Translations under genes and position numbers: made by a program
Shown here: one piece after another, positions 543 through 10,086 of the stretch
Layout of the letters: every line of letters starts with the position of its first letter
How positions within the stretch are numbered: the first letter of the stretch is position 1
DNA from: a virus
Taxonomy: Duplodnaviria; Caudoviricetes
DNA: 64,000 bases
Virus record (IMG/VR): IMGVR_UViG_3300036784_000146
Coordinates: 64,001-128,000 of that record
Direction: 5' to 3' (one strand)
The notes under the pieces: generated by a model
Seen by the model: the letters and a program-made list of their open reading frames with translations, nothing else
The model's database searches: none
Told to the model about the DNA's origin: nothing

Positions 543-1261
543 TGCGCATCCACAGGCAGGCCGAGACTTTTGCCTACCGGCTGGCGACACCCGCCATGCC
601 GGGAGCTTCGCTAAACGTCACCGACAGCGCTCCCCAGAGAAACAGACCCGTCAAGCTGGTGTACGGCGGCGCATTCAACCCGCCGCACGAGGGGCACGTA
701 GGCGCGCTGCGAGACGCGCACAATGCGCTCGCCGGTGCTGGGTACCAAGTAGACGGCACCGTCGTTACGCCTACCGCAGACAAGCTGTTGGCGAAGAAGC
801 AGATGGATCCGCAGTATCAACTGGGCCTGCAGGCTCGCGCCAACGTGAGCCGGGCCGCATTCCCACCCGAGATAAACGGTTCTCCCGTGGAGGTTCACAC
901 CGGGCCGTCCGAGGAGGTCGAGCACTCCGCAGGGAAGCCACGGCGCACCGATCTCGCGAACTGGGTGCAGCGGCAATACCCGAATCACACCATCGTCAAC
1001 GTCACCGGAGAAGACGCCACCGTGCCCGGTGCCCCTGAGGGCGGTCCGCATCCGTCGCTGTACTCCGGCGAGGTCGGCTCCAATCATGCGGGCTACAACT
1101 ATCTCACGCTGCCGCGCGATCCCGTAGAGAGCATGAGTTCAAGCAAGATTCGCGCTGCCGAAGCTGCAGGCCAGCCGCTCCCTGGAATGACGCCAGGGTC
1201 GGAGCGTGCCTATCGCGAAGAGCTGGCAAAGCATCGAGCGAACTTCGCCGGGATTCCGTAA
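542..1261 (+). CDS. HxGH-superfamily nucleotidyltransferase (NadD/NMNAT-like)
   Basis: Start at ATG 542 (overlaps upstream stop) rather than 260; GGAFNPPHEGH, VTGED and MSSSKIR match NadD/CoaD-type motifs. Confidence 0.75.
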   Translation: MRIHRQAETFAYRLATPAMPGASLNVTDSAPQRNRPVKLVYGGAFNPPHEGHVGALRDAHNALAGAGYQVDGTVVTPTADKLLAKKQMDPQYQLGLQARANVSRAAFPPEINGSPVEVHTGPSEEVEHSAGKPRRTDLANWVQRQYPNHTIVNVTGEDATVPGAPEGGPHPSLYSGEVGSNHAGYNYLTLPRDPVESMSSSKIRAAEAAGQPLPGMTPGSERAYREELAKHRANFAGIP

Positions 1262-2226
1262 TGCAGGTCCTTCGGCAGCGCGAGCAGTTCGCCTACCGGC
1301 TGGCGGCGTCGACCAAGCTCTATCGAGGGCTCAATATCGACACGCGCCAGCCTGGGCTTGAGAAGGTGCATTCCATTCTGAATCCACCAGGCACACAGCC
1401 CCTAGAACACCACCCGGGTTGGGATCACCCCGAGGTGGGCACGCACTTACTGAACTGGCTGTCCGACAACAGGAGCGGTCTGGGCAGGCATTGGAGTGAA
1501 GACCCCGCTCAAGCCGAGACGTTCGCCAGGTGGCCCGACGAGACCACCGGACGAGGTGGCAATCTGCAGGCCGTCGTCGAGGGCGACTGGGGTGGGCAGG
1601 GAGCCGATCCCAACCGCACCAACACTCGCGAGTTCAACGACGCCGGAGAGCAGATCCGATCCTTCCCCTGGGAGAAGGAGCACACGCTGTCGCCGGGTGC
1701 CCACCTCAACGTCACCGGCCTGAAGATCCGGCCCTACGACGACGAGTACTGGAATGGCCCTAGCACGGGTGATGAGCCCATCGACGAGAACCACGAGGGG
1801 CCTTGGCATTCGGTGCTCGGTGCCTCGTCGTCGCGAACGGCCGCTGCTGCCGAGCCGTTCATGGTGCCGACCGAGCATTTGGCCCCTCATATCGTCTTCG
1901 ACCGGTCCACCATGATGGAGCAGAGCAAGCCCAACTTCCAGGAGCTGCTGGCGCACATCAAGAAGCACGGGATCCAAGATCCCGTCACCATGGAGACCGA
2001 CGGGCAAACGGGCACCTTGGCCGACGGCAACCACCGGTGGGCGGCCGCCAAGATCCTTGGCCTCCCTCACGTCCCCACTCGGTTCGTTCGAGAGAACACC
2101 AAGTTCTTGCAGCACATCGGTGCTCCGGAACTGCATCCGATGATCCGTCAGCACCTGGCGGCGCACCCGGAGGCCATTCAGGAGGACGTCGAGCGCCAGC
2201 CATCCTGGCAGCAGGGGGAACGATGA
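1261..2226 (+). CDS. ADP-ribosyltransferase-like domain fused to ParB/sulfiredoxin-like domain
   Basis: LYRG...HWSEDP..AETFA...WEKEHTL fits the R-S-ExE ART pattern; C-terminal GIQDPV..DGNHRWAAAKILGLPHVP is a ParB-N signature. Confidence 0.65.
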   Translation: MQVLRQREQFAYRLAASTKLYRGLNIDTRQPGLEKVHSILNPPGTQPLEHHPGWDHPEVGTHLLNWLSDNRSGLGRHWSEDPAQAETFARWPDETTGRGGNLQAVVEGDWGGQGADPNRTNTREFNDAGEQIRSFPWEKEHTLSPGAHLNVTGLKIRPYDDEYWNGPSTGDEPIDENHEGPWHSVLGASSSRTAAAAEPFMVPTEHLAPHIVFDRSTMMEQSKPNFQELLAHIKKHGIQDPVTMETDGQTGTLADGNHRWAAAKILGLPHVPTRFVRENTKFLQHIGAPELHPMIRQHLAAHPEAIQEDVERQPSWQQGER

Positions 2227-4182: not shown

Positions 4183-5748
4183 ATGACCAACCCGTCGTCG
4201 GCCATCGACTTCAGTCGGTACCTGCCGCCCGGTGTGTACGTCAATCCACAGCCTGGGCCGCAGCTGGCTGTCAACTCAAGCCTGCCGACGGCAGTTGGCC
4301 TGTTCGGGGTGGCGATCGGCTTTCGGACTTTCATCGAGTCGGTCATCATCAACCCCGACACCAACGGCACGACACCGGCGGTCAACCGCACGCTAGCCAA
4401 CCAGGGCATCAACACCGCCACCATCCAGGTGACCGACCCCAACACGGGCCAGATCTATGTGTTGGGCACTGATTACACCATCGTTAACGTGGGCGGCACT
4501 GTGGGCACCAGCAATGCGCTGACCACGATCAGCCGGGTGATCGCCGGTGGCCACATCAACGCGGGGTCAACGGTCCAGGTCGCCTATGAGTTCACCGACC
4601 CGACCTACTACGACGCCAAACTCTTCTACACCTACCGCGACATCGTCACCGCCTTCGGCGCCCCGTACAACCTGACCACCGGCGCCATCCAGTCCGAGTT
4701 GACTCTGGCCGCGCAGTTCGCTTTCCTCAACGGCGCCTACCAGATCGTGTGCGCGCCGGTGCACCCAACCACCCCGGGGAATCCCACCACTGGCGACTAC
4801 AACGACGCCTTGGCCAAGCTGGCGGACAACGGCCTGGTCGGCATTATCGTGCCTTGCACCGGCCAGCAGCCGCTGCAGCAGCTGGTCCAGGAGCACGTGG
4901 ACCAACAGTCGGCCAACCGCTTTGAGCGCCGGGCGATCATGGGCATGGACGGCACCGGCACGGCCGTTCCCTCTGGTCAGCGCATGACCAACGCGATGGA
5001 GTTGACCGACCAGCGGATCATGTTGCTCTCGCCAGCAACGTTCACCTACTTCTCGACCGAGCTGAACAACGATGTCACAGTTGGCGCCCAATTCATGGCG
5101 GCCTCACTGGCCGGGATGGCGATGCAGTTGAGCTGGGCGATGCCGCTCACGCGCAAGCTGCCTACCGGCTGGACGGACATCCCCGAGGTCGAGCCCGAAG
5201 CCCAGAAGAATCTGGAAACTGAGAACGGCCTATGCGTCATCGAGAAGACGCGCCGTCAACAGATCCAGGTCCGGCACGGGGTGACCACCGACAACATCGA
5301 CATGTTGCATCGGGAATGGTCGATCATAGGCCAACAGGATGCAATGGTTTATCGTTTGCGGGACTACCTCGAAAACGCAAACTTAATCGGTCAGCCTATT
5401 TACGACTACACGCTCGTGAATGTGAAGGCATCTGCTGAAGCTGCACTTCAGAGCCTTAGACGCGACGGACTAATGGTCGACTATTACGGCCTTGCGGCCC
5501 GACAATTGTTGACCAACCCGGACGTTATCGAGATTAGCTACAGCTGGCTGCCCGCGTTCCCATTGAATTACATTGTGGTCACGTTCAACATCAGCCTGAC
5601 CTCCGGCGACGTCACCCAGCAGGGCACGACCAGCAACATCGCCAACTCGACGAACACTTCGACGACTGGAAGTGCGACCATCACGGCCCCGGCCAGTTCG
5701 TCGACGACCGACTTCGGCGGTCCGTCCAACACGCTGCAGCACACCTAA
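4183..5748 (+). CDS. Contractile tail sheath protein
   Basis: N-terminal YLPPGVY; C-terminal sheath motifs (VRHGVTT..REWSII..FPLNYIVVTF); RBS AGGGAGG. Confidence 0.9.
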   Translation: MTNPSSAIDFSRYLPPGVYVNPQPGPQLAVNSSLPTAVGLFGVAIGFRTFIESVIINPDTNGTTPAVNRTLANQGINTATIQVTDPNTGQIYVLGTDYTIVNVGGTVGTSNALTTISRVIAGGHINAGSTVQVAYEFTDPTYYDAKLFYTYRDIVTAFGAPYNLTTGAIQSELTLAAQFAFLNGAYQIVCAPVHPTTPGNPTTGDYNDALAKLADNGLVGIIVPCTGQQPLQQLVQEHVDQQSANRFERRAIMGMDGTGTAVPSGQRMTNAMELTDQRIMLLSPATFTYFSTELNNDVTVGAQFMAASLAGMAMQLSWAMPLTRKLPTGWTDIPEVEPEAQKNLETENGLCVIEKTRRQQIQVRHGVTTDNIDMLHREWSIIGQQDAMVYRLRDYLENANLIGQPIYDYTLVNVKASAEAALQSLRRDGLMVDYYGLAARQLLTNPDVIEISYSWLPAFPLNYIVVTFNISLTSGDVTQQGTTSNIANSTNTSTTGSATITAPASSSTTDFGGPSNTLQHT

Positions 5749-5760
5749 TAAGGAGGAGAT

Positions 5761-6231
5761 GTGGCTCCATCGTTAACCCGTGTAGGTGGCTCTGGGTTTA
5801 CCACCATGATGTACCAGGGCCTTCGCATGGCGATGCTGCAGGTCATCAACGACACGCAGCCCACTCCGGTGGCGGCCGCCCAAGCCATCCAGCCCATCGA
5901 CGAGTCGGTGCCTATCGAGATCGTGACCGCCCAGGCCGTCGGCGTCGGCACGATGCGAGGAACTTTCTACGAGCTGTGGAACCAGCCGGTCTGGCAGGCG
6001 CTCCCCGGCTTGGCGGGCACCTGGACACTGCTCGACATCCTGCAACGGCAGACCAGCTTGGGCTCGGTCACGATGCAGAAGGTCATCAAGAGCCCGACCG
6101 GCATCATGCGCTCGCTGGTCTACCACGCCACCCAGATCACCGACGTGGATGCGGGCGAGAACATCACGATCGGGACGATGTCCCTGCCGAAGACCATTAC
6201 CTGGCAGTACTGCTACAGCTCGAACGTCTAA
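5761..6231 (+). CDS. Tail tube protein
   Basis: 156 aa directly after the sheath; RBS AAGGAGGAG; beta-rich tube-like sequence. Confidence 0.8.
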   Translation: MAPSLTRVGGSGFTTMMYQGLRMAMLQVINDTQPTPVAAAQAIQPIDESVPIEIVTAQAVGVGTMRGTFYELWNQPVWQALPGLAGTWTLLDILQRQTSLGSVTMQKVIKSPTGIMRSLVYHATQITDVDAGENITIGTMSLPKTITWQYCYSSNV

Positions 6232-6240
6232 GGAGGCACC

Positions 6241-6504
6241 ATGGGACTGGGCATCGTCCGGCAAGCAGATCAATACGGGTTGGATGACGGCGTGCACGCG
6301 CCGGGAGAGTACGAAGCTCCTCCCGAGATCGATCCAGCCGAATCTCGGCGTCCACAGCACCAGCAGCAGCCGTCGTCGCCTTCCCCGTCTCCTGCTCCGT
6401 CGGTGATGGCGCAGCGCATGGGTCCACGCATCCAGGCGGGCACGATGGAGCGTGTTTCACGTGAAACATCGGCACCGATCCTGCCACCTGGTCTGGGGGG
6501 CTGA
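6241..6504 (+). CDS. Small P/Q/S-rich hypothetical protein containing parS (VSRET)
   Basis: RBS AAGGAGG; TGATG overlap with the next gene. Confidence 0.6.
   Translation: MGLGIVRQADQYGLDDGVHAPGEYEAPPEIDPAESRRPQHQQQPSSPSPSPAPSVMAQRMGPRIQAGTMERVSRETSAPILPPGLGG
6453..6468. promoter_or_regulatory. parS centromere-like site, TGTTTCACGTGAAACA
   Basis: Perfect 16-bp palindrome matching the bacterial chromosomal parS consensus. Confidence 0.85.
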
Positions 6505-7241
6505 TGTCTGGTCGTCGTCTACATCCCGACCCAGCTATGGCTCAGCCAATCACCGAGCTGATCGACCCCGCGCTGGCTCAGCCCGTGGCGCCCAGTGGTT
6601 CCCAGATGGGTCCTCCTCCGGGCCAGAACCCTGGCACAGGGCCCCAGATCGGCACGCCGCCCATGGTGCACCCCGCCATGATCCAGGCCCAGCAGGACGC
6701 AGCTGCGGCCGCTCAAGGCATCCCTGGTTTCCAACCGGCCAGCGAACCGTTCATGAAGTTCCACGACGACGACCAGCCCGGGTACGAGGCGGGTGCGGAG
6801 GCGGCACCCCAGCAGGTCGCTGAGCCCGAGCAGATCACCGAGCTGACCCCAGCCGAGCGCCAGGAGTTCTCCGACATCCTCACCATCGGGCGCCGGTCCA
6901 AGCAGATCGATGTCTACGGGCATCCGGTGTTCGTCGAGAACCTCTCCGTCGGAGACGACAAGCTCATCGGCAAGTACTGCAGGGAGTTCCAGGGATCGCC
7001 TCCGGCGGATTCGCGGTCCTACCAGATCGCCGTAGTGGCCTGTGGTGTTCGCACCATCGACGGCCAGGCGCTCTACCAGAGCCTGTCTCCGGACGAGGAC
7101 CCTGACGCCGCCTTCCAGGCGAAGGTGGCCAAGATCGAGAAGCTCTACCCGCCAGTGGTCAGCAAGATCTACCGCGCGATCCAGGACCTCGACCTAGAGT
7201 TCGCCGAGCTGGAAGCCAAACTGGTAAAAGCAAGAGGCTAG
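6504..7241 (+). CDS. Tail assembly chaperone (gpG-like)
   Basis: Lies between tube and tape measure; slippery sequence near the 3' end. Confidence 0.75.
   Translation: MSGRRLHPDPAMAQPITELIDPALAQPVAPSGSQMGPPPGQNPGTGPQIGTPPMVHPAMIQAQQDAAAAAQGIPGFQPASEPFMKFHDDDQPGYEAGAEAAPQQVAEPEQITELTPAERQEFSDILTIGRRSKQIDVYGHPVFVENLSVGDDKLIGKYCREFQGSPPADSRSYQIAVVACGVRTIDGQALYQSLSPDEDPDAAFQAKVAKIEKLYPPVVSKIYRAIQDLDLEFAELEAKLVKARG
7223..7230 (+). other. Candidate programmed -1 frameshift site GGTAAAAG
   Basis: G GTA AAA G three codons before the stop; the -1 frame is open into 7256..7636. Confidence 0.6.
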
Positions 7242-7636
7242 ACGCGGGAGCTGAGTTGGAAGTGCGTCTAGCCTATGAAAAGGGTTTGCTGACTCGGAGA
7301 AACGTCACCAGGATACAGCATTGGGCTTTGCTGTACTGGTTATACATGGAGCGCCGGATTAAGCAGGCGGACCAGCGTGCCTACCTCATCCAGCAAACTC
7401 TCAACCTGAATCCTGACCAGTGGGAAGCGCTGGGCTACCGCGACGAGATGCTGAAGATGCTCGGCATCACCGAGGAGGAGCAGCAGTCCGAGGAGGGCGT
7501 GCCCTTCACTCCCGAGGACGAGGACGCCATCGAGCAGTTCATGCGCCAGCAGGACCAGATTGCGGCCAAGCGCTGGATCTCGGCCGGGATGCTGCCACCG
7601 GACTTCGTCCCTGACACCCAGGGGACGCCCGTCTAA
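7229..7636 (+). CDS. Tail assembly chaperone extension (gpT-like, -1 frame)
   Basis: Only a TTG start at 7256; frame open back to the slip site; TAATG overlap with tape measure. Confidence 0.65.
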   Translation, partial: SKRLDAGAELEVRLAYEKGLLTRRNVTRIQHWALLYWLYMERRIKQADQRAYLIQQTLNLNPDQWEALGYRDEMLKMLGITEEEQQSEEGVPFTPEDEDAIEQFMRQQDQIAAKRWISAGMLPPDFVPDTQGTPV

Positions 7637-10086
7637 TGACCACTGGGGGCAACGAGTTTCTTTCGGCGAGGATCGACTTCGAGATCCCGCAAGAGGCAAT
7701 GAGCCAAATGCGCGAGTTCAACAACGAACTTGAGCGTACGAGAGTCAACTCTGAGTCGGCCGCGCGCGGCGTGGACAGCTTCATGCGCTACATCGACCTG
7801 ATGAACGCCGCGCAGGAGCGCACGATCCAGACCAGCCGCAACCTGGCCGCCAACCTGGAACGGATCCTGCAGATCCAGGAGCGCGCCGGGCAGGCAGAGG
7901 CTGGTACTGCCGTGCCCCAGCAGTACACCGCTCCCTGGTCGGGAGGCGCCGAAGGGATGGGCGGCCCGCACCGCGACGTCCGTCCGCTGCCGACCACCGT
8001 CCCCGCCGTCGGTGGCTCGCAGGCCGAGTTCGACCACCTGATGGCCAACGACCCGCGCGCCTACCTCAACGCCCGAGCGGCGTGGGGTGGTCGCCAGCCC
8101 GGCGAGCAGATGCCTCCTGTGTCGATCTCGGACCAGTCCCTGGACAGGCTGGCACGCACCATCGCTGGCCGCGACCACGACCAGCAGGTGCAGGAGGCCA
8201 AGTCGACGCCTCCCTCTCCGGGCCCGGGCGACGGCGGCCTGGGCGGAGGCCGAGGAGGACCACCTTCTCCGAAGCCCGGCCAAGCCCCCTGGGAGGCCTG
8301 GCGTAACCGTGCCGCGCAGTGGACCGGAGCGGCTGGGACCGTCATGAGCGGCCTGGGGATGGGCGGCAGCATGAGCGGCATGCTCGGCGCGGCCGGACGC
8401 GCCATGCAGGGCTGGGGAGCTGCTCGTCAGCGGCAGGATGGCGCCATCGGCGAAGGTCCCGGTTCGACGGTTCCCCGTCCCCGCAGGGGAGGTAGTGGCG
8501 GCACCTCCCCATCGGTGCCCACCGAGGGGGAGACCGAAGAGGGCGGCAATGCGGGCGAGGATGAGGGCGCAGGCAGCCTGAGCCTGGGTCAAGCTGCGGG
8601 GATGGGTGGTGCTGCCCTGGGCGTCGGCCTGGGTGTCTTCGGCGCCATCCAGAAGGGCGGCCAGGAGGTCCAGCGCTACCGCAATCTGGGCTCGATTCGA
8701 GGCGGTGGCTTCGGCGAGGGCTTCGGCTACGAGATGCAGGCTCGCATGATGGCGATGAACCCGTTTATCACCACCGAGCAGTCGCGCCAGATCATGCAGA
8801 GCGCGCTGACCCAGGGCTACACCGGCAAGGAGTTCGACACCGTCACCCAGTTCATGGCCAACAACCTCAAGGAAATGAACATGTCGGTGGCCGAGTCCTC
8901 CAAACTGCTGCAGAAGTCCGCGCAAAACAGCAACGAATCCATCCAATCGATGGCCGAGAACCTCGAACACAATATGACCTCGATGAAGGACCTTTCCAAG
9001 ACCGGCTACAACACGCTGCCTTACCGCCAAGAGGCTTACGAGCAGGTCTATGGTGCTGCCCTACAGAGTGGGGCTAACCCCCAGGCTGCCGGTCGTGAGG
9101 GCCTTATCGCAGGTCAAGAGTTTTCAGACATGCCCGGAATGAAAGGGGTCGGCCCGGCCCTGGATCAGGCTGCCATCAACAACCCCAACTTCGGCTACAT
9201 GATGATGCAATTCGGGGGCGCCAACGGCGGCCCGATGCGTGTCCCCGGTGCCAATATGGGCGACCCGGGATCCATTGCCGAAGCGTTGCAAAATTCGGGT
9301 CAATTCAACGAGGCGAAATGGCGCACCCTGAAGAGAATTGCGGGAATGTCGCCGAACGTCGGCGTCTTCCAACGTCTGGTGGGGACGATGCTGGGAGTAC
9401 ACCTCGACCGTGCTCAGGCCAAGAACCTCTACCAGGCCGCCAAGGCAGTGGGTACCGGTACCGACTTCGACCCCCTGAAGTCCGCGAAAGACGTTCAGCA
9501 ACAGGACGACAAGGAGGCCAAGAAGCGCCGTCAGGTCTGGGGCGAGGAGCACATGCGAGCCGACATGGGCGGTCCCCTCGGACTGGGGAACGCCTTCGGC
9601 GGTAACGCTCAGATCACTCCCGACCAGGCCGAGAGGTACGCCAAAGAACACGGCTACTCAGGTCGCAGCGAGGGTAGCGAGATCGAAGACCAGGTTATGC
9701 AGGCCTATGGGGGCATGCCCATTGAGGTGGGCTCGGCCGACAAGGGTTGGAAGGCTTTCGATCCCTCCAACCAGGACATGATCCGCGACCTGAAGAGCGG
9801 CAAGATGCGTATCCGCGAACGCGGGGACCAGGGGCCAGGTGACGCGATCTCCGACCTTCCCGGCTCGGGGAAGGGCAAAGGAGGGATGGGTGGCGCCGGT
9901 AACCAGGTGCACGGTCAGCTGCAGATCACCGTGCACCCGGCCAACATGCGCAGCGTGCTTAATGTGCCCTCGTTCATCCCCCTCACCGCCAACGAGCAGG
10001 CCGCTAACTCGGGCTACGGCAACGCCACCAAGAACAACCCGCCGCCGGGCGACGGAATCACCTCGCGTGGGGCCAGGGGTGGCTGA
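7636..10086 (+). CDS. Tape measure protein
   Basis: 816 aa, A/G/Q/M-rich and helical, directly after the chaperones. Confidence 0.75.
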   Translation: MTTGGNEFLSARIDFEIPQEAMSQMREFNNELERTRVNSESAARGVDSFMRYIDLMNAAQERTIQTSRNLAANLERILQIQERAGQAEAGTAVPQQYTAPWSGGAEGMGGPHRDVRPLPTTVPAVGGSQAEFDHLMANDPRAYLNARAAWGGRQPGEQMPPVSISDQSLDRLARTIAGRDHDQQVQEAKSTPPSPGPGDGGLGGGRGGPPSPKPGQAPWEAWRNRAAQWTGAAGTVMSGLGMGGSMSGMLGAAGRAMQGWGAARQRQDGAIGEGPGSTVPRPRRGGSGGTSPSVPTEGETEEGGNAGEDEGAGSLSLGQAAGMGGAALGVGLGVFGAIQKGGQEVQRYRNLGSIRGGGFGEGFGYEMQARMMAMNPFITTEQSRQIMQSALTQGYTGKEFDTVTQFMANNLKEMNMSVAESSKLLQKSAQNSNESIQSMAENLEHNMTSMKDLSKTGYNTLPYRQEAYEQVYGAALQSGANPQAAGREGLIAGQEFSDMPGMKGVGPALDQAAINNPNFGYMMMQFGGANGGPMRVPGANMGDPGSIAEALQNSGQFNEAKWRTLKRIAGMSPNVGVFQRLVGTMLGVHLDRAQAKNLYQAAKAVGTGTDFDPLKSAKDVQQQDDKEAKKRRQVWGEEHMRADMGGPLGLGNAFGGNAQITPDQAERYAKEHGYSGRSEGSEIEDQVMQAYGGMPIEVGSADKGWKAFDPSNQDMIRDLKSGKMRIRERGDQGPGDAISDLPGSGKGKGGMGGAGNQVHGQLQITVHPANMRSVLNVPSFIPLTANEQAANSGYGNATKNNPPPGDGITSRGARGG

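Follow-up and report, generated by a model that had tools for sequence, protein, structure and literature searches.

The window considered here is a 64-kb stretch corresponding to bases 64,001-128,000 of a 143,610-bp viral contig from IMG/VR, which is estimated to be 96% complete. It carries a block of tail genes in which the sheath and tube genes are followed by a small gene, a tail assembly chaperone with a downstream reading frame, and the tape measure gene (Table 1). The two pieces of the chaperone are annotated as joined in the Mycobacterium phage Phrappuccino and in Myrna. A megablast search with the locus against cultured phages returned no match and the phage was placed by protein-level searches, in which all good matches were to phages of Mycobacterium, Gordonia and Rhodococcus. 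By the measure of these matches it is an uncultured 144-kb myovirus akin to the myophages of these three genera, and its host is predicted to be an actinobacterium of a mycobacteria-like type.

Table 1. Genes and sites of the tail gene block and its surroundings (coordinates are those of the window)
Feature	Position	Strand	Basis or remark
ParB_N-like (ParB/sulfiredoxin-fold) domain protein	1261..2226	+	domain at residues ~200-285 of 321
Leader of the ParB_N-like protein	1261..1305		also found on the small 87-aa protein
Tail sheath	4183..5748	+	58.7% identical in amino acids to the tail sheath annotated in Mycobacterium phage Phrappuccino
Tail tube (virion structural protein)	5761..6231	+	phrog_2756, E 6e-66
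Small 87-aa gene with parS in codons RVSRET	6241..6504	+	homologues: Phrappuccino gp75, Myrna gp125
Leader of the small protein	6241..6290		IVRQADQYGL
parS TGTTTCACGTGAAACA	6453..6468	.	14-bp core at 6454-6467
Tail assembly chaperone	6504..7241	+	phrog_2792 and phrog_2992; ATG overlapping the small gene's stop codon
Inverted repeat, two arms	7235..7245 / 7264..7274		perfect, 11 bp, 18-nt loop
Tail assembly chaperone, downstream frame (frameshift extension)	7256..7636	+	phrog_2992 positions 184-273
Tape measure protein	7636..10086	+	phrog_2836, E 6e-85

The small gene contains the palindrome TGTTTCACGTGAAACA, which agrees at 16 of 16 positions with the consensus of chromosomal-type parS sites (TGTTNCACGTGAAACA, with the core GTTTCACGTGAAAC), and whose 14-bp core is the parS sequence of M. 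smegmatis and M. tuberculosis (PMC7022226, PMC3527565). The preliminary description of this DNA had recognized here a perfect AT-rich 16-bp palindrome in GC-rich DNA and equated it with the chromosomal parS consensus; both statements hold, with 10 of the 16 bases being A or T against ~63% G+C in the surrounding DNA. No other perfect 16-bp palindrome occurs in the window, and the site is the sole match to its own sequence at up to three mismatches in the window and at up to two mismatches in the whole 143,610-bp record, which answers the earlier call for a copy count over the full genome with a single site. Using the mono- and dinucleotide frequencies of the window, the chance expectation is 6e-6 to 1e-5 copies per genome. 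The site is read in frame through the codons GTT TCA CGT GAA ACA as VSRET, and the open reading frames together with the PHROG matches of the neighbors confirm its previously reported position in an 87-aa ORF between tail tube and chaperone. An RNA hairpin, a terminator and a promoter were each considered as candidates at this position and rejected, the local fold giving z = -1.5 and a search for consensus promoter and terminator sites giving none.

The 87-aa ORF is preceded by an AAGGAGG ribosome site, its TGA overlaps the chaperone start codon, and all relatives examined, the two cultured phages among them, have a homologue at this position, which together mark it as a real gene; its product has no Pfam or PHROG family match. 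Two sequence elements recur in this family, a leader at the N terminus, I-x-RQA(D/E)x(Y/F)GL, and, further inside the protein, the motif LL-x-GP-x-I-x-AG-x-(L/M), which in the window protein takes the form GPRIQAGTM just before parS. The parS codons, (R)VSRET, come straight after this motif and are followed by a fast-diverging tail, and at the equivalent position other family members display RTEDTE, TRTAWR, VRDEGD or QRQAVD. Given that VSRET varies across the wider family and that the coding sequence diverges wholly just 3' of the site, the constraint on it looks to be exerted at the level of the DNA rather than that of the protein. The leader is itself portable, in that it also heads unrelated proteins of the same phage, such as the ParB_N-like protein, which starts MQVLRQREQFAYRLA; further family loci with this element are L132:5557-5730, L133:5659-6387 and L009:4697-5481, and L009 has the small gene in two tandem copies. 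As this leader is shared, the small gene may code for another such tagged protein, perhaps one targeted to the virion.

Relatives were collected both with the tube protein, from IMG/VR and metagenomes, and with the small protein itself. parS is present at the orthologous codons in three lineages, namely the window phage, a type comprising L002, L137, L170 and L171 in which the last base of the site is C, and a type comprising L134 and L160-L169 in which the first base is C. Variation is thus confined to bases 1 and 16, both of which lie outside the 14-bp mycobacterial core and change synonymously (CGT to CGC and ACA to ACC), and the core itself is invariant in all three lineages. Between the window phage and the other two lineages 17-18% of the sheath residues differ, as do ~40-50% of the codons for identical residues; many codons around parS likewise differ among the three, and the coding divergence is complete immediately after the site. 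The third codon positions of the phage are 82% G+C, and the core codons are accordingly rare choices within their synonymous sets (GTT 0.09, TCA 0.045, CGT 0.14 and GAA 0.19), with a joint probability of 1.1e-4 for these four codons given the peptide VSRE. The null was supplied by the sheath, tube and chaperone genes of these lineages: among 118 conserved residues with an A/T-ending codon, that codon is retained throughout the three in 29. Against these flanking genes, the retention of four A/T-ending core codons in a row has an approximate p of 0.004, in a test of limited size, which draws on four codons and, L002 and L160 being close (72-85% identical codons), on effectively two deep comparisons. 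Within this small sample, parS looks to be kept by selection on the DNA rather than on the encoded peptide. The check on synonymous positions proposed in the preliminary description therefore has a positive outcome, the three lineages sharing one core in spite of its rare codons and differing within the site only in the drifting outermost bases.

The phyletic spread of the site is nevertheless restricted. In a tree of sheath and tube proteins the window phage, L003 and the L002/L160 group constitute one fully supported clade, the internal order of which is not resolved. parS was not found at up to two mismatches in the next relative, L003/G002, the record of which is only 48% complete, nor at the same threshold in two 100%-complete records, in one 84%-complete record and in Phrappuccino and Myrna, both of which are complete genomes. 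A search for further parS copies in seven related viral records and these two cultured phages likewise gave none. The expectation that relatives would share the site is consequently borne out for three lineages, which hold the core, and fails for the next relatives and the cultured ones, so that its presence is not general.

The sister lineage also offers a natural allele that lacks the site. L135 and L138 are identical to L160 over 811 nt upstream and ~830 nt downstream, with one difference, and in them a 31-nt segment that begins at base 2 of parS, ends at the start of the chaperone gene and takes in parS and the tail of the small ORF is replaced by a 396-nt cassette encoding a 119-aa endonuclease with HNH_3 and NUMOD4 domains (L135:3340-3699). 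Between L160 and L138, which represent the sister lineage rather than the window phage, an endonuclease is therefore absent or present exactly at the site in otherwise identical alleles, as is expected of a homing target. The HNH-bearing proteins were recovered on ~80 contigs, as against 14 for the parS-bearing proteins of the same lineage, and the HNH-bearing alleles have no replacement parS within 10 kb. The existence of a near-identical sister allele that is devoid of parS and commoner in metagenomes implies that any function of the site is dispensable: either the phage lives without it, or the homing drive outweighs the benefit it confers. The interval between tube and chaperone is, across the relatives, a hot spot for mobile genes (L135:3340-3699; L007:4549-5247 and 5201-6079; L002:4533-5198; L004:4538-5257; L010:4459-5091), which variously holds the HNH_3+NUMOD4 gene, an HNH gene, a Mom-like ORF that scores below the cut-off, and a recurrent ORF of ~220-240 aa that has no Pfam match and looks like a free-standing endonuclease.

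To place the phage site in a wider context we looked for the same 16-mer in viral contigs at large and recovered perfect copies in at least 119 IMG/VR contigs (L012-L130, e.g. L050 on a 122-kb contig, L088 and L044). Among these listed contigs, the site is single in 93 and repeated in 26, with up to five copies in ~1 kb. The reversed palindrome ACAAAGTGCACTTTGT, which has the same composition and served as a control, was found in 2 contigs. This excess of at least 60-fold over the control implies that chance accounts for very few of the parS copies in viral contigs, and part of the contigs bearing them are surely plasmid-like or host fragments. Among the listed contigs, 14 have a G+C content of at least 58%, and tblastn detected no relatives of the window phage in this set.

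Which protein might read the site was addressed by profile searches of the phage genome, which gave no match to ParA (PF13614), tyrosine integrase (PF00589) or HTH_ParB (PF17762) and no full-length match to canonical ParB (TIGR00180). The single protein with any resemblance to ParB is the ParB_N-like product encoded upstream of the sheath gene. It scores 22-24 bits with PF02195, which is below the cut-off, and 24.7 bits with TIGR00180 against a cut-off of 58.45, aligning only with profile positions 4-79; its matches in PDB (ParB, Noc and sulfiredoxin) cover the N-terminal fold only. In place of the GERR box of ParB it has the sequence DGNHR in box II, and it shows neither an HTH nor room for one after the domain. 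The preliminary description had spoken of two phage ParB-like domains lacking an HTH and of a missing ParA: the latter is upheld for the whole genome as regards family PF13614, and so is the want of an HTH in the one domain that was found, whereas a second domain was not recovered anywhere in the genome. Since these searches gave no sequence-specific ParB and no ParA for the phage, the only known reader of parS in the infected actinobacterial cell would be the host ParB. On balance, we favor the interpretation that the palindrome is a genuine chromosomal-type parS, kept by selection on the DNA of this phage lineage, and that it probably serves as a docking site for host ParB.

The most substantial alternative is that the palindrome is a chance product of a fast-evolving coding tail of low complexity and is shared by the three lineages merely through common descent, with no role related to ParB. 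This would fit a single site per 144 kb that is limited to one sub-clade and that has been lost, with no visible compensation, in the commoner HNH-bearing allele; the closeness of L002 and L160 points the same way, and by our own arithmetic ~250,000 windows could yield about one perfect site by chance. The conservation in relatives is, however, independent of this last expectation, and in an individual genome the expected number is only 1e-5. Descent alone would also have had to preserve four rare codons in the face of change at the synonymous sites on either side and in the codons around them, and the at least 60-fold excess of parS over the control palindrome in viral contigs runs against a chance origin. 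Taken together, these points lead us to regard such an accident as unlikely.

A role in a DNA transaction of the phage itself, with the palindrome being kept as the homing site of the HNH endonuclease or as the site of another phage DNA-binding protein, is suggested by the HNH_3+NUMOD4 cassette, which begins at base 2 of parS and eliminates the site entirely between otherwise identical flanks in the manner of endonuclease-plus and endonuclease-minus alleles, and also by the other mobile endonuclease genes in the same interval of relatives. Such a role leaves the exact ParB consensus unexplained, and neither the window phage nor the L002 lineage has an HNH gene of this kind at the site. Moreover, a homing target could have been exploited because it was already conserved, which is compatible with a ParB role; as an explanation in its own right we consider this improbable. 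Finally, the five consecutive rare codons placed 36 nt before the stop/start overlap, and the pairing of the palindrome in the predicted fold, raise the prospect of an RNA or translation element, i.e. a hairpin or a rare-codon pause that tunes the small gene and the coupled chaperone gene. Yet the local fold is no better than those of shuffled sequences (z = -1.5), the stem is short and A/U-rich, and neither a pause nor a hairpin would need the exact letters of parS, making this explanation very improbable.

If the site indeed recruits host ParB, the closest known parallel is the Bacillus phage phi29, which, in the account of Meijer et al. 2005 given in PMC2731898, carries the host parS at five sites and employs Spo0J for the entry of its genome into the spore. 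The use of host ParB by a phage, as put forward in the preliminary description, is to that extent already a known idea and not a novel one. As in phi29, a virulent-type phage that lacks its own sequence-specific ParB carries the host consensus parS, which host ParB/Spo0J could handle. The differences are that phi29 has its five sites on 19 kb, whereas the present phage has, at up to two mismatches, one site on 143.6 kb rather than several spread over the genome, and this in a gene of the late structural region; and that the phi29 case involves a sporulating Firmicute and has experimental support, whereas the predicted host of the present phage is a mycobacteria-like actinobacterium that does not sporulate. 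With the chromosomal parS sites of actinobacteria, of which M. smegmatis has three, M. tuberculosis two and C. glutamicum ten (PMC7022226, PMC3527565), the phage site shares identical DNA, both the core and the 16-bp form matching the M. tuberculosis site, and a location in coding sequence like that of many chromosomal copies. Chromosomal sites usually lie proximal to the origin near parAB; in contrast, the phage copy is a single orphan in a tail gene block, away from an origin and from parAB, and not on a chromosome. A different use of partition machinery in phages of Mycobacterium-type hosts is provided by the extrachromosomal prophages of actinobacteriophages, which according to Dedrick et al. 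2016 (PMC4998052), as cited in PMC12704722, have their own ParA, ParB and arrays of parS repeats. The present phage, unlike these, shows neither a ParA of family PF13614 nor a canonical ParB and has no flanking repeat arrays, and carries instead one copy of the host consensus. In the literature on host-type parS in actino- and mycobacteriophages we found only such phage-encoded parABS systems and the phi29 case. What is added here is synonymous-site evidence that fits the 14-bp mycobacterial core exactly, a natural parS-minus allele generated by a homing endonuclease, and the coding location of the site in a tail block.

One parS is enough to nucleate CTP-dependent ParB clamps, and these spread by sliding over the adjoining DNA and interact with ParA and SMC. 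The mycobacterial ParA links the ParB complex to the polar protein DivIVA (PMC7022226). We infer that host ParB would nucleate at the phage parS, load as CTP clamps onto the flanking phage DNA, and thereby couple this DNA to ParA/DivIVA and to SMC. The most likely pay-off would be an accessory one, in which the phage genome, on infection or during replication, stays with the host origin region and is positioned and passed on together with it while lytic growth is delayed. The setting for this might be a carrier state in slow or dormant cells, a non-sporulating counterpart of the Spo0J/parS-dependent entrapment of phi29 in the spore. By analogy with phi29 we favor, among the potential outcomes, that the phage genome would be retained and passed on to daughter cells when the lytic cycle comes to a halt. 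Titration of ParB from the two or three parS sites of the host, or the loading of SMC, are possible outcomes of the same binding. With only two or three sites in mycobacteria, replicating phage DNA would soon outnumber them; yet titration of host ParB holds no clear benefit for the phage. In its most extended form the proposal would be that a virulent-type mycobacteriophage lineage rides the host ParABS/DivIVA system by means of a single parS in a late structural-region gene, for genome retention in slow or dormant cells (a carrier state), and that a mobile HNH endonuclease has come to home to this conserved centromere, giving rise to natural parS-minus phages in the same soil populations; as a complete scenario this is speculative, and we would not expect all of its parts to hold.

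Should host ParB load on the phage DNA, the strategy of phi29, i.e. that of a lytic phage borrowing the chromosome segregation apparatus of its host, would extend to actinobacterial and probably mycobacterial phages. It would then come with a simple experimental handle, a single 16-bp site that is naturally present in some alleles of one population and absent from others, both on how large lytic phages persist in slow-growing hosts and on the effects of ParB/SMC loading on foreign DNA in mycobacteria, whose own parS sites number only two or three. Should there be no binding, the locus would exemplify how a perfect motif match combined with modest conservation can mislead.

Two further features of the tail region merit mention. 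The perfect 11-bp inverted repeat listed in Table 1 spans the chaperone stop codon and the start of the downstream frame, and may represent a structure tied to programmed frameshifting at this junction. In a relative of the L134/L135 type, the tail region codes for a 1246-aa protein (L174:15961-19701) that has precomputed domain matches of two kinds, intein splicing and NlpC/P60 peptidase, and may be a cell-wall hydrolase broken by an intein.
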